The notes under the pieces were generated by a model. The model ran no database searches and was not told where the DNA came from. It saw only the letters and a program-made list of their open reading frames with translations. The position numbers and the translations under genes were made by a program. Positions 52,603 through 63,175 of a stretch of 64,000 nucleotides of DNA are shown here, piece by piece; the stretch's first letter is position 1, and each line of letters opens with the position of its first letter. This DNA is from Parcubacteria group bacterium (lineage in GTDB: Bacteria; Patescibacteriota; Minisyncoccia; Moranbacterales; GCA-2747515): assembly GCA_041660065.1 (NCBI GenBank), contig JBAZXC010000004.1:10098-74097 (forward strand), read 5' to 3'.

Positions 52603-52694
52603 TGGAGAGGTGCCAGAGTGGTCGAATGGGACTGACTCGAAATCAGTTGTCTCGTTTTAACGGGACCCAGGGTTCGAATCCCTGCCTCTCCGCC
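52603..52694 (+). tRNA. tRNA-Ser (anticodon CGA)
   Basis: Acceptor GGAGAGG/CCTCTCC, anticodon loop aCTCGAAa, long variable arm, T-loop GGTTCGAATCC, encoded CCA. Confidence 0.75.
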
Positions 52695-52702
52695 AACAAG
52701 AA

Positions 52703-52750: not shown

Positions 52751-52868
52751 AGGGATTCGAACATGGAAAGGGGTCGGGAAAACGATAGTTTCCCCGTGGT
52801 GGAAGTATTGAAACCGCAAGGTGTCAAAGAGCGAAGCGACGTGAGATTCCCTGCCTCTCCGCAAATAA
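52743..52868. other. tRNA-like fragment / att-type duplication of tRNA-Ser 3' end
   Basis: GGAGAAGGGAGGGATTCGAAC resembles the reverse complement of a tRNA T-arm and acceptor stem, and GAGATTCCCTGCCTCTCCGCA repeats the 3' end of tRNA-Ser(CGA); it does not fold as a complete canonical tRNA by eye. Confidence 0.4.
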
Positions 52869-54389: not shown

Positions 54390-55748
54390 GTGAAGGAGGT
54401 TGATTTCATGAAAACATGTTTAGATTTTAAGAGAGCGTTGGTGGAGAGTGGCCTGATGGATTTTGCAGAGGAAACATCCTTGGCAGTTTGGTTGGGTGAC
54501 GGCATGAAGATGCTTCGAATTTTGGAGAGAAAGATTATAGAGCTTTTTGAACTGCAGGGTTATGAAGAGGGACGTTTCCCGCTCTTAGCTCACAGAAGTC
54601 ATTTCAACAAGCTTTGTATGGAAATTTGCAATTTTGATGGAGGTGTTTTTTGCATTGAAGGAAAAAGTGACTTACTTCTGCGACCCTCTGGTGAAATTGT
54701 GTTTTATCCTCTTTTTGCAAAGTGGTCAAAAAAAAGAGGTCTTCCTCTAAGGTTTTTTTCCATTGGACAAATGTTTCGTCAAGGATCTGCTCAAAAGATA
54801 TTTCGTCAGTGTGAGAATGATATGTTTGTAGAAGGACATGCCTCATTTAAAAATGCAGGAGAGGCGCATATTGAAGTAGATCGTCTTAATGATATTTTGA
54901 GGAGTTGGTTTTCCATTCTTTCACTTCCAGTCTTGATCGTGGACCGTCCAGGTGAAACAAATAAGCCTGTGGCAGAAAGGCACATTGGTTTTGATGGCAT
55001 TTTGCCAACGGGGGAGACCATTCTTCTTGGCGCCTCGTATTATCAAGGACAAATTTTTTCTCGTGTCTTTAATATTAAAAATCGAGACACTGCAGATTTT
55101 GCATATCAGGCGGAAGCAGGATTTTCATCCAGAGCGATCCTAGCATCTCTATGGGTGCATGCGGACAAAAAAGGATTGGTATTGCCGAGTAGTTTTGCTC
55201 CTATTCAAGTGGCAATCATTCCTAGCAGTAAAGATGCTGGCATGCTTTTGCAGGCAGAGAAAATAAAAAAAGATCTCAATGTGGCTGGAATTCGAGTAAG
55301 GATTCAAATCCCAGAACGAAATAAAAGAGTCTTTTATCAGAATTTGGAGATATCCGGCTATCCGGTAGTAATTCGATTGAATGAAACAGACACTTGTCAA
55401 GTTTACTATCGTTTTGATGATCGATGTGATAGTGATCCAAAAAATCTTTTATTGGAAGTGAGTGAATACTTGAAAAATTTGGACGGCAGAATTCTGAGAA
55501 AAGCAGTGGATGCTCATATTTCCAAGATGATTTTTGTTTGCGAAGATGCAAGAATAATCATTGATGTCCTTAATAGTCAAAAAGTAGCTCAGATATTCCT
55601 CTGTAGTGAATCTACCTGTTTGCATGGAGTTAAAACCAGCGTTGGTCGAGGTGAGATGATTGGTTGGGATTATTCTAGTCAAGAGCGGGGTGCGTGTATT
55701 CAATGCGGAAAGGAAGGTAGACGTGCATATTATGCTAGAAGAATCTAG
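54390..55748 (+). CDS. archaeal/eukaryote-type prolyl-tRNA synthetase homolog with substituted motif 2
   Basis: 452 aa colinear with class IIa ProRS: LLLRPSGE, motif-2 region GQMFRQGSAQKIFRQCENDMFVEGH (the canonical FRxE is altered to FRQG), motif-3-like GFSSR, anticodon-binding domain APIQVAIIPS, and a C-terminal Zn motif CIQCGKEGRRAYYARRI. Confidence 0.65.
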   Translation: MKEVDFMKTCLDFKRALVESGLMDFAEETSLAVWLGDGMKMLRILERKIIELFELQGYEEGRFPLLAHRSHFNKLCMEICNFDGGVFCIEGKSDLLLRPSGEIVFYPLFAKWSKKRGLPLRFFSIGQMFRQGSAQKIFRQCENDMFVEGHASFKNAGEAHIEVDRLNDILRSWFSILSLPVLIVDRPGETNKPVAERHIGFDGILPTGETILLGASYYQGQIFSRVFNIKNRDTADFAYQAEAGFSSRAILASLWVHADKKGLVLPSSFAPIQVAIIPSSKDAGMLLQAEKIKKDLNVAGIRVRIQIPERNKRVFYQNLEISGYPVVIRLNETDTCQVYYRFDDRCDSDPKNLLLEVSEYLKNLDGRILRKAVDAHISKMIFVCEDARIIIDVLNSQKVAQIFLCSESTCLHGVKTSVGRGEMIGWDYSSQERGACIQCGKEGRRAYYARRI

Positions 55749-57082: not shown

Positions 57083-58054
57083 ATGAAAGCAACATTATCT
57101 AATTCCGATTATTTACGTAATTTTGACCGCTTTATCAGCAGTTTAGATTTTTCTGATCCTGATAATCTTCGTATTTATTCTCATCCAAAGTGGATCAATG
57201 TGCATCCTGCTGTTTTAGCTTTAATTGTAGAAATGGCGATGCGGGCAGGTAAGCAGAATGTTACGTTTGAAAATATTACAGCAACTTCCGGTTCGTATCT
57301 TGATCGTATGGGGCTTTTTGAATTCACACATCAAAAGTCACCATATACTATTAACAAGAAAGAAGAATCGGGAAGATTTATACCCGTCACGATTATCAAA
57401 AATTCTACCGAGCAGTCAAAATTTATTACTGACATGATTCCTCTTTTGCATTTACCTGCTGATAAAACGGATGCTATTAAATATACGATTGGGGAACTGC
57501 TTCGTAATGTATTGGAACACTCAGGAAGTACGCATGGAGCGATTGTTGCGGCTCAATACTATAAAAAATCAAACACAATTCGTATTGGTATTTGTGATGG
57601 CGGTATTGGTATTAAAAAGAGTCTGCAACACTATTGGGCTTCTCGGTCAAAGACAGATATAGCTGCAATCAAATGGGCAATGGTACCCGGTATTTCGGGG
57701 ACAACACGAAAAGAAGGCGGAACAGAAGATAATGCTGGTGCCGGATTATTTTTCATTAAATCTATCGCGCAAGTAGCACGTAACTATTTCATGATTTACA
57801 GTGGATCCGGTATTTATAAACTACTACTTCACGATAAGAGAATAGAGAAACCACGGCTCCATTCCGATCCGGATGACGATCGTCATTCTGAACGCGACGA
57901 CGCCCCTTATTTTCAAGGGACATTGGTGGCAATAGATTTATCCCTTGAAAATAAATCTGAATTTACCCAGCTTCTCTCTGCGATACGAGAAGTTTATGGC
58001 AAGGCGGTTAGGGATCGTAAGCGAAAGAAATATAAAGAACCAAAATTTATATGA
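57083..58054 (+). CDS. GHKL-type ATPase (HATPase_c-like) with N-terminal uncharacterised domain
   Basis: 323 aa; N-box ELLRNVLEHS and G1 box ICDGGIGI; the stop overlaps the next start (ATGA). Confidence 0.6.
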   Translation: MKATLSNSDYLRNFDRFISSLDFSDPDNLRIYSHPKWINVHPAVLALIVEMAMRAGKQNVTFENITATSGSYLDRMGLFEFTHQKSPYTINKKEESGRFIPVTIIKNSTEQSKFITDMIPLLHLPADKTDAIKYTIGELLRNVLEHSGSTHGAIVAAQYYKKSNTIRIGICDGGIGIKKSLQHYWASRSKTDIAAIKWAMVPGISGTTRKEGGTEDNAGAGLFFIKSIAQVARNYFMIYSGSGIYKLLLHDKRIEKPRLHSDPDDDRHSERDDAPYFQGTLVAIDLSLENKSEFTQLLSAIREVYGKAVRDRKRKKYKEPKFI

Positions 58055-58365
58055 GTAAAATAATTAAGATTAAGGATCTTGTCGGTGATTTTGCAGAAAA
58101 TAAAGACGTGGCAAAAGATTTACGTGTCACCGATATTATGCCGACCTTGGCAGATGGTCAGGAGGTCATATTGGATTTTTCTGGAGTTAGCGGTACAACT
58201 CAATCATTTATTCACGCCTTGATCTCTGAACCAATTCGGCGGTTTCGTGATGTAGCTTTGGAAAAGATACACTACAAAAATTGTTCTGATGTTGTAAAAG
58301 AAGTTATTAAAACGGTGTCTGAATATATGCAGGAAAGTCTTGATTCGGAAAATTATGAAAAATAA
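58051..58365 (+). CDS. STAS-like small protein (DUF4325-like partner of the GHKL ATPase)
   Basis: 104 aa; translationally coupled to the ATPase; ...EVILDFSGVSGTTQSFIHALI... resembles the STAS-like DUF4325. Confidence 0.45.
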   Translation: MSKIIKIKDLVGDFAENKDVAKDLRVTDIMPTLADGQEVILDFSGVSGTTQSFIHALISEPIRRFRDVALEKIHYKNCSDVVKEVIKTVSEYMQESLDSENYEK

Positions 58366-58524: not shown

Positions 58525-59196
58525 ATGTCAGCAAATATCATAAAACACTTTATTGAAACAAGAGATTTTAATTACGGATCAGTGAAAGAAAAGCTCAATG
58601 AAATCATGGATGAGCATACAAAAAAGGCGTGTGTAATGTTAAATATCAACCTTGTTAATATCATTATATGGCCAAATAGTGATGCAGTGATACCGGAAAC
58701 AGGCGAAGGTGGCCAAGTATGGTCAAAAGAACTTGTTATGATTTATATTGATCCAAGTCGTTCTGTCGCAGAACTTCAAAAGATCATTGAAACACAAATT
58801 CCAGCAACAATCTATCACGAATTAAATCATATTGCTAGGGGAAATTTTTTAAGCAAAGAAGAACTTGGTTTCCATCATAATTTATCAAAAGCAGTAATCT
58901 CAGAGGGTATCGCGTCCTATTTTGCACATGAAAAATGGTCGCAAGCTCAAATGCCATGGACAAAATACTCGGAAACAGAAATACAAGATCTTTTGAGCAT
59001 TTATTTAAGCAGAGATATTTCTGATGATGACCAATATGACCATGAAAAATGGTTTTATGGCACGGGTGATCTCCCACGATGGATCGGCTATAAATTGGGA
59101 TATTATTTCGTTGAACGTTATAAGAAACAAAATCCAAATGTTTCATGGAGCGATATTATAAAACTAAAAGATCATGAGTTCATGAAAACTGTGTAA
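58525..59196 (+). CDS. putative Zn-dependent protease (HExxH; DUF2268-like)
   Basis: 223 aa; the HELNHIARG zinc-binding motif is in a soluble protein. Confidence 0.5.
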   Translation: MSANIIKHFIETRDFNYGSVKEKLNEIMDEHTKKACVMLNINLVNIIIWPNSDAVIPETGEGGQVWSKELVMIYIDPSRSVAELQKIIETQIPATIYHELNHIARGNFLSKEELGFHHNLSKAVISEGIASYFAHEKWSQAQMPWTKYSETEIQDLLSIYLSRDISDDDQYDHEKWFYGTGDLPRWIGYKLGYYFVERYKKQNPNVSWSDIIKLKDHEFMKTV

Positions 59197-59207
59197 ATCA
59201 TATTTTT

Positions 59208-59278
59208 TCATCAAAAAAGTTCCAACGTCGTCCCACTCCTTGTAAAGGAAATCACGCAATTTACTGCGTGGTTTTTTT
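59208..59278. repeat. cassette-boundary repeat, left arm + terminator hairpin
   Basis: TTCATCAAAAAAGTTCCAACGTCGTCCCACTCC, then CACGCAatttacTGCGTGGTTTTTTT. Confidence 0.6.
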
Positions 59279-59515
59279 AATTTAATTCTAATCTTGATTG
59301 CAGGTGACAATTCGCAAAAAGCCAAGTATGGTAGAAAATGGGATTTTCTGCCTAAAGTTGCGAAAACTTACTGAACGGGAGTATACTGTAAATAATTCGT
59401 AAACTTTATAATATGTCGAATATAAAAATAAATCATGGAAGAAAATTATCTAAATTGAAAGATGAAAATATGTGGAGTATAAAATTTTGAATTTATCATA
59501 ATTAATGAATCGCAT

Positions 59516-59926
59516 ATGAAACAGTATAGTATTTTTATAAGTCATTCATGGGCTTATGGCGAAAACTATAATAGGCTCATCAAAATGCTTAATAATGATC
59601 CCTATTTTCATTTTAAAGATTATTCTGTTCCAAAGCATGATCCCATTCATAATGCTCCAAATCAACTTCTTTTAAAGCAAGCGATTGCAAATCAAATAAG
59701 ATTTTGTGATGTCGTAATAATATTAGCGGGTGTTTATTCAACATATAGCAAGTGGATCAATATTGAAATTGACATTGCTAAGAATGGCTTTCAATATCCA
59801 AAATCTATTCTTGCAATTGAGCCTTGGGCTAGTGAAAAAACATCACAAATTGTCAAGAAAAATGCCGATAAAATAGTTAGGTGGCAAACATGTTCAATTG
59901 TTGATGCAATAAAAGGATTAGCCTAA
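59516..59926 (+). CDS. TIR-like domain protein (DUF1863/ThsB-like)
   Basis: 136 aa; YSIFISHSWAYGENY...CDVVIILAGVYSTYSKWINIEIDIA fits the bacterial TIR-like pattern (FIShS ... S.W...E); AT-rich (about 30% GC); 12 nt upstream of the next gene. Confidence 0.5.
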   Translation: MKQYSIFISHSWAYGENYNRLIKMLNNDPYFHFKDYSVPKHDPIHNAPNQLLLKQAIANQIRFCDVVIILAGVYSTYSKWINIEIDIAKNGFQYPKSILAIEPWASEKTSQIVKKNADKIVRWQTCSIVDAIKGLA

Positions 59927-59938
59927 ATCATAATCTTT

Positions 59939-60466
59939 ATGGATATTAAAAAATTGGAAGAAAAACTATTTGTTTCGAAGAATGAAAATTATGGAGATAA
60001 ATATATAGAACACTTATTGGAACAATATAAGGTTTATATTGACTCTGCAGAAAAAATAAGTGATCGTAGACAAAAATCAAATGAATTTTTTCTTGCTTTA
60101 AATAGTAGCTTGGTTGCATTATTGGGATATATACTTGCGAAAAATAGTGATTCAGAAATAGTAAGCTTGTTCATTCTATCTTCTATTTCAGGGATCGTAT
60201 TATGTTATTTTTGGTATAGAATTATTTATTCTTATAAATGTTTAAATAGTGGAAAATTCAAAGTTATTCACATGATTGAAAGACGATTACCACTAGCGCT
60301 TTATGACACAGAATGGGAAATATTGGAAAGAGGAAAAAACAAGAAAGTTTACTGGCCGTTCTCGCATATTGAGCTCATGGTCCCTTGGATATTTATTATT
60401 ATTTATATAACCATTTTATTTCTCAACCTATGTCCAAAAATAGGAGCGTTGATATGTGCAATGTAA
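59939..60466 (+). CDS. small 3-TM protein, SLATT-like candidate effector (paralog 1)
   Basis: 175 aa; an N-terminal amphipathic helix, two closely spaced TM helices (FFLALNSSLVALLGYIL / IVSLFILSSISGIVLCYFWY), a soluble loop and a C-terminal TM; overlaps the next gene by 11 nt. Confidence 0.5.
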   Translation: MDIKKLEEKLFVSKNENYGDKYIEHLLEQYKVYIDSAEKISDRRQKSNEFFLALNSSLVALLGYILAKNSDSEIVSLFILSSISGIVLCYFWYRIIYSYKCLNSGKFKVIHMIERRLPLALYDTEWEILERGKNKKVYWPFSHIELMVPWIFIIIYITILFLNLCPKIGALICAM

Positions 60467-61001
60467 ATGGAGGATAAATATGAAAAAAGAAAAAAACATA
60501 GAATTAATTTATTCTGAGGTAAAAGAGAGATTAAATAGGCAGATAGATTCCATAGATCAGGTGGCAGTTAAATTTAATTTTTTACTTGCGCTTAATAGTA
60601 TAATATTGGCTTCACTCTTACAATCTAACCTTTTAGGATCTCGAAAGGAATGTATTTCATGGATGATGTTTTTTGCAGTAGTGTGCTTTTTTTTATCAAT
60701 CCTATTTGACTTGAGAGGGCTAGTTATGCAAAAGTATAGACGAGATCCTGATCCACAAAAACTTTATGAAGGATATTTCAACAAATCAAAGCAATATACT
60801 CAAGAAGTCTTAATCATTAATTACGTGCATGCTTTCAATGAAAATGTGAAAAAATTACATCATGTTAACAAATTTTTTGCTTATTCAATATTTTCTTCCT
60901 CTATTGCTTTAATATTTGTTTTTATAAATTTAATTAATCCTAATTTAATTTTCATATGGAAAATGATAATAAAGATGATGTGTCAGATATGCCAAAGTTA
61001 G
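60456..61001 (+). CDS. small 3-TM protein, SLATT-like candidate effector (paralog 2)
   Basis: 181 aa; same architecture as the upstream gene; shared LALNS(I/S)(I/L)LAxLL motif. Confidence 0.5.
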   Translation: MQCKWRINMKKEKNIELIYSEVKERLNRQIDSIDQVAVKFNFLLALNSIILASLLQSNLLGSRKECISWMMFFAVVCFFLSILFDLRGLVMQKYRRDPDPQKLYEGYFNKSKQYTQEVLIINYVHAFNENVKKLHHVNKFFAYSIFSSSIALIFVFINLINPNLIFIWKMIIKMMCQICQS

Positions 61002-61127
61002 AAACTGAAGATGAAACGCCAAAATTTGATCCGAAACTAGTTAGCTATGAGGAAAAGGGTTATGATCCACATAGTAAAAATGTAAAGAATTTTTCGAAAA
61101 AGGACGACAGTGAATAGTTGTATATAA

Positions 61128-61598
61128 ATGACAATCCTAAAAAAATCATATTTGAAGAACAAGGATGAAGATCTGATTCATCTTCGAGCAATAAAATTTG
61201 GGATGAATTTTCCTAATGGTTTTATGTATGAACATTTTAAGAAGCGATACGAAACACATAGAGTGAATGATTGGAAAATTGTTGATGAATTTTTGCAAGA
61301 AGCATATAATAATAAAAATGGAACTTCTAACCGAATCACTCCATTTGTTTTGCTTGAGAGAGGGCCAAATGGGAACGCAGATACTTCAAAATATATATTG
61401 AGTTATGAGGCATATTTTAATTATTTGGCATATCGAAATGCAAAGAGGACTATTTGGATTGGTGTCGGAGCAATAATAGTTAGCGTAGTATTGTCTTTAT
61501 TAACTTTTATTGATAATACATATGAAGACAACAATAATAAAAAAGATGAAAGATATCACTATCAAAATATTTTCAGAGGCTCGCAAAATTGCAAATGA
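61128..61598 (+). CDS. hypothetical protein with C-terminal TM
   Basis: 156 aa; AT-rich; no motif. Confidence 0.45.
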   Translation: MTILKKSYLKNKDEDLIHLRAIKFGMNFPNGFMYEHFKKRYETHRVNDWKIVDEFLQEAYNNKNGTSNRITPFVLLERGPNGNADTSKYILSYEAYFNYLAYRNAKRTIWIGVGAIIVSVVLSLLTFIDNTYEDNNNKKDERYHYQNIFRGSQNCK

Positions 61599-61655
61599 AA
61601 AAATGAATCAAATATAGTGTTATTAATTAGAAATTTGACAGAAAATATCGTTTGT

Positions 61656-61745
61656 TATCAAAAAAGTTCCAACATCGTCCCACACTCCCCGCACAGATTT
61701 TAAGTCCAAGATAATGGGACTTTTTGATGGGGAAGTTTGTCATTT
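61656..61745. repeat. cassette-boundary composite repeat (variant)
   Basis: TATCAAAAAAGTTCCAACATCGTCCCACACTCCCCG, hairpin AAGTCCaagataatgGGACTT, then TTTTGATGGGGAAGTTTGTCAT. Confidence 0.65.
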
Positions 61746-61766
61746 TTAAACAAGGTCATATAATGA

Positions 61767-62465
61767 ATGCATAAACATAATAAGGCATGCATCATGGATA
61801 AGGCAATAGAGAAAAAACCAACTGCACTAGATGTTAAACTAAAGAAAAAACTTGACTTACTTCGACGTTATTGGTTTGCATACAAGCGAGCGCATCATGC
61901 CCTTTTAGGGGAAATTGAAGAAAACCAAATACTCTTACAGTTTCATGAGTGTAGAAAATTTAATACTTGGCAATTAAATGAGGCATTATATAGATACGCT
62001 GAATCTTCGATAAGTGCTCTATTTTGGTTGTTTCCAGATATGAAATACAAGGATTATCCTTTTGTACACAAATTCTTGAGGAAGTGGCGTAATGGAAATC
62101 AGCATGATGAACGAACGGATTTTTTTCTAAATGATGGAGGTTTTCAATATAATAATAAGAGGCATGATTTACCCTTAGGGTATAATGTGCTTCCCGTTTT
62201 CAATCTAAATAAAGAACTAAAAAAAGTTGTGAAATCACAGTTTGGTTCGGATAAAATTGCAACGGATGCAACAGTGGTGGAATTGGTTAAAAATCATCAT
62301 ATATTTATGGTTAAAAAATTTAATGAATATGAAGCAAATCTAAATAAAGAATTGCCAAAGAAATATTTGCAATCAATTGTGCAGGAACACATGACGATGT
62401 ATGGGGGAGTGCATGATGAGTTTGTTTCGGAAGATGATTTTTGGAAAGGAGAAATTAATAAATAA
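61767..62465 (+). CDS. hypothetical protein
   Basis: 232 aa, soluble and basic; no motif. Confidence 0.45.
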   Translation: MHKHNKACIMDKAIEKKPTALDVKLKKKLDLLRRYWFAYKRAHHALLGEIEENQILLQFHECRKFNTWQLNEALYRYAESSISALFWLFPDMKYKDYPFVHKFLRKWRNGNQHDERTDFFLNDGGFQYNNKRHDLPLGYNVLPVFNLNKELKKVVKSQFGSDKIATDATVVELVKNHHIFMVKKFNEYEANLNKELPKKYLQSIVQEHMTMYGGVHDEFVSEDDFWKGEINK

Positions 62466-62502
62466 TAATCATTTTACTTTTGATAAAATGATACTGTTTT
62501 AT

Positions 62503-62628
62503 TCATCAAAAAAGTTATAACATCATCCCACACTCTCCACCAGTTGCTTGCGAAGAAGATTTAGAACAGCTCGTTTTTACGGGCTGTTTTTGTATGGGGA
62601 GATAGAGATGTTGATTTTTTTGTGATAC
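62503..62628. repeat. cassette-boundary composite repeat (full copy, divergent hairpin)
   Basis: TTCATCAAAAAAGTTATAACATCATCCCACACTCTCC, variable hairpin region ...CAGCTCGTTTTTACGGGCTG, then TTTTTGTATGGGGAGATAGAGATGTTGATTTTTTTGTGATAC. Confidence 0.65.
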
Positions 62629-62665
62629 AGTTAAAATAATAGTTAATTTTATTAACGTAAACCAT

Positions 62666-63175
62666 ATGAAAAAAATAATATACTTTTTTATTGCTGGATT
62701 TATAATTGGACTGCTAATTTCTCCTGTAGCTGGAATGGCAAATAGCGTTACGAGGAACTTGATTTTGGGGATGGCTTCTGATGTAACTATTTTGGCAATG
62801 GCGGATAAAGTTAACGATAACAAAAATTCAGATGAGCAACTTAATACAAAGATATCGGATCTTCAATCTATTGTTGATAATCAGAAAACAGAACTTGCAA
62901 ATTGTCAGCAGCAAATAGATTTACAGAGTGCAAAAATAGAGGAATCAGATTTGAAAAACGAAGGAACGCAAATTAAAATAAATAATGAAGTCGAATGTAG
63001 AAAATTGTATTCAGATAATCAAGAATGTAACACGCCGTCTTTTAGGAGTGAATTAGATTTTAATAGAATGATTGAGTCATACAAAGAGGGAATGCCAGAT
63101 AAATGGAAATCTTATAGGGATGAAAAGCTTATTGTATTTAAAAAGTGTCAAGAAATTATTAAAGAATGCGGATAA
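62666..63175 (+). CDS. secreted/membrane-anchored coiled-coil protein, hypothetical
   Basis: 169 aa; signal anchor, Gln/Asn-rich coiled-coil, 4 Cys at the C-terminus. Confidence 0.45.
   Translation: MKKIIYFFIAGFIIGLLISPVAGMANSVTRNLILGMASDVTILAMADKVNDNKNSDEQLNTKISDLQSIVDNQKTELANCQQQIDLQSAKIEESDLKNEGTQIKINNEVECRKLYSDNQECNTPSFRSELDFNRMIESYKEGMPDKWKSYRDEKLIVFKKCQEIIKECG

Follow-up and report, generated by a model that had tools for sequence, protein, structure and literature searches.

A ThsB-type TIR gene and a putative 8xMP-family membrane effector precede an apparently autonomous two-gene cassette in a Parcubacteria genome

We analysed a 64,000-nucleotide stretch of contig JBAZXC010000004.1 from the metagenome-assembled genome of a Parcubacteria group bacterium (hereafter the window), in which four genes read in the same direction, g1 to g4, lie in a region of low guanine-cytosine (GC) content (Table 1). 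The data indicate that these genes probably make up two co-transcribed units: a Thoeris-type abortive-infection system formed by the TIR gene g1 and the membrane protein gene g2, and an autonomous cassette formed by g3 and g4. An earlier note, made from the sequence of this DNA, had described the first three genes as a TIR-like gene co-transcribed with two paralogous small membrane proteins resembling SLATT effectors. Its three open reading frames (ORFs) on the + strand and its 12-nt gap between g1 and g2 were recovered; the fourth gene, g4, is absent from its list.

The g1 product was assigned to the ThsB-type TIR family, as the earlier note had suggested, with 61.8 bits against Pfam PF08937 (ThsB_TIR; cutoff 21.2 bits) and a best match of 7.6e-11 to the PADLOC ThsB models. 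The Pfam scan shows a TIR domain alone, without an obvious sensor part, and g1 is the only protein of the module with a match among the PHROGs. Glu84, located in a W80-x3-E84 motif, is the candidate catalytic residue of g1; all 43 TIRs in the alignment, validated ThsBs of types I, IV, VII and VIII among them, have this Glu, and we take it to be the equivalent of the catalytic Glu of BcThsB. The catalytic Glu had been predicted to sit in the BB-loop; it is expected instead in this W-x3-E motif, where the helix following the central strand begins. The g1 protein shares 54% identity with the type IV ThsB of E. coli 328 and 42% with the validated type VII TIR from Pseudohongiella, which belongs to the same TIR cluster. 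A sequence search of the PDB with g1 returned no informative relative, the TIR-like MTH538 being matched weakly (E 0.06).

The g2 product belongs to a different family from the one anticipated. It matches Pfam PF24838, '8xMP, octameric membrane protein family', with 144.4 bits (cutoff 30) over model positions 1-134 of 136, and has more than 670 close 8xMP homologs at 60-78% identity. Pfam scans with g2 gave no SLATT family at E values up to 1 and no match to DUF2270 or Macro. An NCBIfam scan of g1 to g3 gave zero matches, searching the PDB by sequence with g2, g3 and the profile of 8xMP yielded no solved relative that was informative, and our literature search on 8xMP or the octameric membrane protein family found nothing relevant. 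Hydropathy and AlphaFold2 (AF2) agreed with the topology proposed in the earlier note: both g2 and g3 have an N-terminal cytosolic helix running into a first transmembrane (TM) helix, a tight TM1-TM2 hairpin and a C-terminal TM3. The charge distribution of both proteins predicts an N-in orientation, and the AF2 model of g2 has three TM helices with a predicted local distance difference test score (pLDDT) of 81.6. The comparison with SLATT proteins therefore stands for the architecture of a helix followed by a two-TM hairpin and fails for the family, since neither g2 nor g3 matches a SLATT profile and the expected Pfam families (SLATT_1-6, SLATT_fungal) are absent.

The cytosolic parts of 8xMP proteins are strongly conserved. 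In a sampled alignment the mean column identity was 64%; the invariant residues in predicted cytosolic segments are R43, R44, R94, K106, H111 and H143, together with aromatic residues, and K46, K100, R116, R131 and K135 are near-invariant. The motif SDRRQK is found ahead of TM1, and a conserved stretch, WYR...SYK.LN.GK..VIH.IE.RLPL.LYDTEW...YWPF.HIE, extends past TM2. This basic and aromatic pattern would suit a cytosolic face that binds nucleotides and oligomerises.

The conserved unit is TIR plus 8xMP, and it lies in defence islands. We collected 34 distinct 8xMP loci from a scan of species genomes (27 loci), contig look-ups, one metagenome contig and one viral contig; loci other than the window's are cited below by number. 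A ThsB-type TIR adjoins 8xMP in 32 of the 34, across phyla of the Candidate Phyla Radiation (CPR), Bacteroidota, Gammaproteobacteria and the viral contig. The TIR lies directly upstream on the same strand in 30 of them and is convergent, after a TIR-TIR pair, in two Aeromonas loci (L038 and L053); the same TIR pair stands before a caspase gene in the related contigs L036 and L037. Tandem TIR-TIR-8xMP arrangements, with the second TIR about 400 nt upstream, were found in L014, L016, L019, L020, L023 and L052. The two loci with no adjoining TIR, L033 and L034 (Magnetococcales), encode the most divergent 8xMPs (42-44% identity). The species-genome loci come mostly from Saccharibacteria, Parcubacteria and other CPR bacteria and also from Flavobacteriaceae, Chitinophagaceae, Gammaproteobacteria and Magnetococcales. 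Neighbouring genes include restriction-modification (RM) genes (BsaWI, DpnI, PstI-type and Eco57I-type), Mrr-nSTAND, LexA-methylase fusions and dCTP deaminase. The distribution is patchy and the module is horizontally mobile, with no core-genome housekeeping pattern.

Several of these loci show further features. Directly upstream of 8xMP in L034 are a defence gene for a dCTP deaminase (PADLOC 4e-149) and a gene of 202 aa that has no annotation. Three loci (L001 2732-4582, L039 1141-2993 and L040 1673-3525) share the order LexA-like repressor (LexA_DNA_bind plus Peptidase_S24), DUF2188 protein (80 aa), TIR, 8xMP. DUF2188 is among the putative Thoeris effectors of Yirmiya et al. (bioRxiv 10.64898/2025.12.03.692087), and these loci may thus hold two candidate effectors, or one effector and a regulator. 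In L006 (2391-3439, minus strand), from a Bacteroidetes metagenome-assembled genome, a divergent second ThsB_TIR (162 aa) and an unannotated 174-aa protein beside the TIR-8xMP pair may be another TIR-effector pair. The TIR of L029 (1074-1301) is truncated, a sign of decay or of an assembly error.

A recent survey of Thoeris systems places this pair in context. The preprint of Yirmiya et al. (December 2025; bioRxiv 10.64898/2025.12.03.692087) reports 29 putative types of Thoeris and the validation of types V-XI. Its Table S1 and Fig. 1C contain an experimentally unvalidated '3TM' effector class, with at least 100 occurrences in Table S1, whose TIRs are assigned there to cluster 2734565194; g1 is 55-61% identical to the closest TIRs paired with '3TM' in that table. 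The preprint gives '3TM' without effector sequences or a Pfam family and makes no mention of the g3-g4 cassette. We searched with one '3TM' TIR entry of Table S1. No exact database match was found for it, the matches being clusters at 95% identity or less, and its relatives at 70-86% identity adjoined either a Peptidase_C14 caspase, which serves type IV Thoeris as its effector (L036, L037, L055), or a PF24838 8xMP (Aeromonas L038 and L053). Because relatives of the listed TIR as close as 81-86% adjoin 8xMP genes, the '3TM' effector is very likely 8xMP. The TIR-8xMP pairing has therefore very probably been catalogued already, and the earlier note's view of it as an undescribed pairing probably does not hold.

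The same TIRs precede a caspase or an 8xMP gene, so that 8xMP has been exchanged with the caspase effector; judged from these sequences, 8xMP appears to behave as an interchangeable Thoeris effector. We compared g2 and g3 with the validated Thoeris effector families (ThsA SIR2-SLOG, Macro-TM, SLOG, caspase, DUF2270, DUF6650, SLATT, CMP hydrolase, TIR-SLOG, ion channel and HIT): g2 matched PF24838 only and g3 had no Pfam match. Since both proteins fall outside these families, the locus can be filed only under a predicted, unvalidated Thoeris type. The TIR-8xMP pair is thus a Thoeris variant whose effector family is neither validated nor named in the searchable literature. This agrees with the earlier proposal of a horizontally mobile, Thoeris-type TIR module whose partner is a small multi-TM protein and not a SIR2/SLOG/Macro ThsA.

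Two TIR subfamilies, A and B, partner 8xMP. The identity between 8xMP proteins is 62% within the A-partnered set, 60% within the B-partnered set and 60% between them; 8xMP is therefore not split by TIR subfamily, indicating one shared signal. Both subfamilies occur among published type IV ThsBs, the second having up to 48% identity to the Pseudomonas sp. 1-7 type IV ThsB, and type IV TIRs produce N7-cyclic ADP-ribose (N7-cADPR; bioRxiv 10.64898/2025.12.03.692087). For this reason N7-cADPR would be our best guess for the signal, with canonical cADPR as the second candidate.

The second membrane protein, g3, is unrelated to g2. The earlier note had regarded the two as paralogs arising by duplication and sharing a LALNS motif. 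BLASTP between them gave a best E value of 1.9 and two hhalign runs gave probabilities of 2.1% and 0.6%; in the absence of detectable homology the two proteins belong to distinct families, 8xMP and PycTM-like, and the LALNS string is not conserved in the wider family of g3. Helix connectivity past TM2 also differs between the two. The AF2 model of g3 has three TM helices with a pLDDT of 95.2. Pfam scans gave g3 no family and listed no SLATT at E values up to 10; PF18967, listed in its database record, was not reproduced. The g3 sequence itself matches PADLOC PycTM at 2.3e-5, and 69 of 79 sampled family members match the PycTM model PDLC02364 (best 1.1e-11). Some members also match CBASS 2TM effector models, and just two of the 79 touch PADLOC RTasSLATT, at 1.6e-3. 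An exhaustive search with a profile built from the five close relatives of g3 recovered 668 clusters. A YRRDPDP loop motif is invariant within the close subfamily.

Close relatives of g3 are found mainly behind other defence genes, which they often overlap by 4-8 nt. They follow type IIG RM enzymes (L008, L044, L047), a type ISP enzyme (L041), a methylase with a ResIII helicase (L048), a methylase with an unknown protein (L043), an NgoFVII-like endonuclease (L045), a MutH/Sau3AI-like endonuclease (L046) and DUF2130 (L007). Conservation of the g1-g2-g3 triad beyond the window, which the earlier note had raised, was found in part. A close g3 follows TIR-8xMP in the window and in L050 only, the latter being an independent metagenome contig (TIR 75% and 8xMP 63% identical to those of the window), and a distant relative (22% identity) occupies the slot after TIR-8xMP in Flavobacteriaceae L009; g3 is missing from about 30 other TIR-8xMP loci. 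The L050 copy carries a possible frameshift (764-1038), a sign of decay or of an assembly error. The genes after 8xMP in L001, L039 and L040 were considered as g3-like and rejected, being DUF4365 or zinc-finger/HTH proteins, and the 174-aa protein of L006 is likewise unrelated to g3.

A fourth gene, g4, accompanies g3. Each of the 11 loci that continue beyond g3 (the window, L007-L009, L041 and L043-L048) has a small ORF of some 39-60 aa after it, and these ORFs are homologous among loci. They overlap or adjoin the 3' end of g3; the overlap is typically 37 nt and reaches 46 nt in the window. Two residues, K34 and G35, do not vary in the g4 alignment, and the motif DPxLVSYxEKG[FY]xP lies outside the overlap. 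Beyond the overlap, the differing codons in the g4 frame comprised 48 synonymous and 17 non-synonymous changes, against 7:61 and 14:52 in the other frames. This synonymous-rich signature and the conserved homologous ORFs indicate that g4 is a real gene. Searches of Pfam and PHROG with g4 gave no significant family, and in L048 (4571-4750) g4 is split over two frames, a sign of decay or of an assembly error. The g3-g4 pair mostly follows RM genes (type IIG, ISP, III-like and II) and occasionally TIR-8xMP; on comparative grounds it appears to be an autonomous two-gene cassette joined to the tail of defence operons. Neither the cassette nor its link to restriction operons seems to have been described before.

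We therefore propose two units with distinct roles. In the first, the ThsB-type TIR g1 would sense phage infection and, through E84, turn NAD+ into an ADP-ribose-derived second messenger. The messenger would bind the conserved basic cytosolic face of an oligomeric 8xMP, which would then breach or depolarise the inner membrane, stopping phage replication and aborting the infection. In the second, g3 would be an independent second-line membrane toxin, restrained by or regulated through g4 and co-transcribed with whichever defence operon precedes it; it would probably not be a second receptor for the TIR signal. Some observations weigh against parts of this proposal. The identity of '3TM' with 8xMP was drawn from relatives of a listed TIR and not from the exact listed genes. 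N7-cADPR was deduced from TIR relatedness and the effector exchange alone, and TIRs of the same cluster (types VII and VIII) also produce canonical cADPR. The PycTM match of g3 itself is weak, TM proteins being prone to composition-driven matches. Finally, the recurrence of the triad in the window and L050, with the distant cassette of L009, with gaps of 5-13 nt and no terminator, makes it possible that g3-g4 is to some degree functionally coupled to the TIR system.

In a rival reading, in line with the earlier note, one TIR would feed two membrane effectors, g2 and g3 both binding its signal and forming parallel or hetero-oligomeric pores. The close spacing of the three genes with no terminator-like site between them, the second triad and the PycTM-like cassette in the L009 slot, and the three-TM topology with an N-terminal helix common to g2 and g3 all fit this arrangement. 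We consider it unlikely, given the many TIR-8xMP loci that lack g3, the position of close g3 relatives behind RM enzymes, which are not known as nucleotide-signal producers, the obligate partner that g3 has in g4, and the undetectable homology between g2 and g3. A published case bears on the same point: in Liu-DS6, an operon uniting a Pycsar system with type IV Thoeris, PycTM shares an operon with a TIR system and acts independently of the TIR, and a chimeric TIR+PycTM construct gave no protection (PMC13069673), which speaks against g3 being simply cross-activated by the TIR. The logic could also run in reverse, with 8xMP as the sensor, of envelope stress or of the entry of phage DNA, and an NAD+-depleting TIR as the effector. 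TIR NADase effectors exist in CBASS, Pycsar, pAgo and Avs contexts, and g1 has no sensor module of its own. We find this quite unlikely because the same TIR clade also takes, interchangeably, a caspase-like effector as its partner in systems where the TIR is the reported signal producer, tandem multi-TIR loci fit several sensors feeding one effector, and ThsB-type TIRs of the g1 cluster have been shown to signal only on infection.

That g2 and g3 serve ordinary membrane or housekeeping functions in a CPR bacterium, and lie near a TIR-like protein by chance, is very improbable. Both lack functional annotation, consistent with the empty NCBIfam scan, but 8xMP is patchy, with 27 matches in 185,579 species genomes over unrelated phyla, the module has an anomalous GC content, its neighbours are RM and other defence genes, and 8xMP is strictly adjacent to a TIR. 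The same distribution and neighbours speak against core-genome synteny and a housekeeping role, two possibilities raised in the earlier note. Phage lysis genes were also considered and rejected, the viral contigs holding one 8xMP locus and zero g3.

The two-unit organisation that we favour can be compared with known systems. The predicted 'TIR + 3TM' Thoeris of the preprint shares the TIR cluster 2734565194 and an effector with three TM helices, as in 8xMP; the window locus adds the g3-g4 cassette, and the identity of the two effectors is deduced and not exact. Near-identical TIR pairs precede the caspase of type IV Thoeris or an 8xMP. The type IV effector is a Peptidase_C14 protease, whereas that of the window is a 175-aa three-TM protein, and killing would therefore occur by membrane damage and not by proteolysis. 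Type VII Thoeris consists of a TIR and the SLATT effector ThsH, with canonical cADPR as the signal (bioRxiv 10.64898/2025.12.03.692087). Here too the TIR pairs with a small membrane-spanning effector, predicted to form an oligomer with basic inter-protomer pockets; unlike ThsH, g2 and g3 have no SLATT match, and 8xMP is a separate curated family. Type V (ThsF/DUF2270, 3'cADPR) and type II (Macro-TM effector, His-ADPR) also use signal-gated membrane effectors, ThsF having three TM helices and a predicted ring-shaped homo-oligomer, but their TIR clades and signals differ and g2 has neither a DUF2270 nor a Macro match. Membrane effectors with basic pockets are found in types II, V, VII and X.

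The g3 family resembles the Pycsar effector PycTM in its PADLOC matches, size and topology. No cyclase was found among the flanking ORFs of the window or the scanned neighbours of g3 homologs, where a PycC would be expected in Pycsar; g3 carries g4 and its family follows RM genes, and we therefore do not regard g3-g4 as Pycsar. A bolder and tentative idea, to which we attach a low likelihood, is that g3-g4 is a new autonomous abortive-infection module joined to the 3' end of unrelated defence operons, restriction-modification and Thoeris-like alike, a portable guard or back-up that would fire when a phage shuts off or inhibits the upstream first-line system. PrrC of EcoprrI is an abortive-infection effector, an anticodon nuclease, embedded in a restriction operon. 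The g3-g4 cassette would likewise be a latent killing module physically joined to an RM operon, although the proteins are unrelated, PrrC being an anticodon nuclease and g3 a three-TM protein. A guard function of g3-g4 would be speculation.

The pairing of a TIR with a membrane effector is no longer surprising as a core idea and is now expected. If 8xMP is gated by a TIR signal, a compact and highly conserved effector family would be added to Thoeris, one that predominates in CPR/Patescibacteria, a lineage that surveys of defence systems under-represent. The caspase-to-8xMP swap leads to the testable hypothesis that one N7-cADPR signal drives either proteolysis or membrane killing, and 8xMP, with its strictly conserved cytosolic face, lends itself well to structural studies of how a ligand might gate it. 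As a possible portable second line alongside restriction systems, the g3-g4 cassette bears on the layering of defence.

The coordinates of the genes and of the signals around them are collected in Table 1. The deposited proteins WC819_04960 and WC819_04965 are 100% identical to g2 and g3, respectively. An 11-nt overlap between g2 and g3, as first described, requires a GTG start at 60456. The ATG at 60480 is the likelier start: it agrees with the deposited 173-aa gene call and with the N-termini of homologs, and GGAGGA precedes it. The junction is therefore a 13-nt gap. The hairpin upstream of g1 is the likely 5' boundary of the transcription unit, and the consensus scan found no further terminator-like site up to 61900. 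Sigma-70-like sites were no more numerous in the real sequence than after shuffling, hence the two promoter matches are suggestive only.

Table 1 Features of the four-gene module and its upstream region (positions in the window)
Feature	Position	Strand	Description
g1	59516-59926	+	136 aa, ThsB-type TIR; proposed phage sensor and signal synthase
g2	59939-60466	+	175 aa, 8xMP-family three-TM protein; proposed signal-gated membrane effector
g3	60480-61001	+	173 aa, PycTM-like three-TM protein; first gene of the two-gene add-on cassette
g4	60956-61117	+	53 aa, small acidic protein; 46-nt overlap with the 3' end of g3
Shine-Dalgarno GGAGGA	60469-60474	+	5 nt before the g3 ATG at 60480; read from the sequence
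Terminator-like hairpin	59245-59278	+	consensus scan: 14-pair stem and T-run; closes the upstream DUF2268 gene
Two weak sigma-70-like promoter matches	59304-59387	+	9/12 positions each; upstream of g1

The low-GC setting near a tRNA-Ser gene, also pointed out in the earlier note, was reproduced. The module has about 29% GC against 42% in the first 52 kb of the window, and the low-GC stretch, which starts 6.8 kb upstream of the module, begins just past tRNA-Ser(CGA) (52604-52695). The 3' end of this tRNA is directly repeated over 15 nt at 52848-52862, about 150 nt downstream of the tRNA, near the point where GC starts dropping from 42% towards 29-37%; this repeat may be the att remnant of an integrated island.

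Other genes occupy the same region. Downstream of g4, three more ORFs on the same strand (61128-63175) encode a 156-aa protein carrying a TM at its C terminus, a 232-aa protein, and a 169-aa protein that combines a coiled coil with an N-terminal TM. No significant family match was obtained for any of the three, and no terminator-like site separates g4 from the first. A divergent ORF resembling class II aminoacyl-tRNA synthetases (54390-55748) lies in the low-GC region, with weak matches near the cutoffs (tRNA-synt_2b 1e-6, HGTP_anticodon 1e-3). Upstream of the TIR operon, a predicted Zn-dependent protease of the DUF2268 family (58525-59196; Pfam 2.4e-27) is preceded by a translationally coupled pair in the same low-GC island (57083-58365), encoding a 323-aa HATPase_c-like protein and a 104-aa STAS-like DUF4325 protein. 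The 323-aa protein matches the N-terminal region of PADLOC DrmA at 8.5e-12, and the pair may be another defence-type module.

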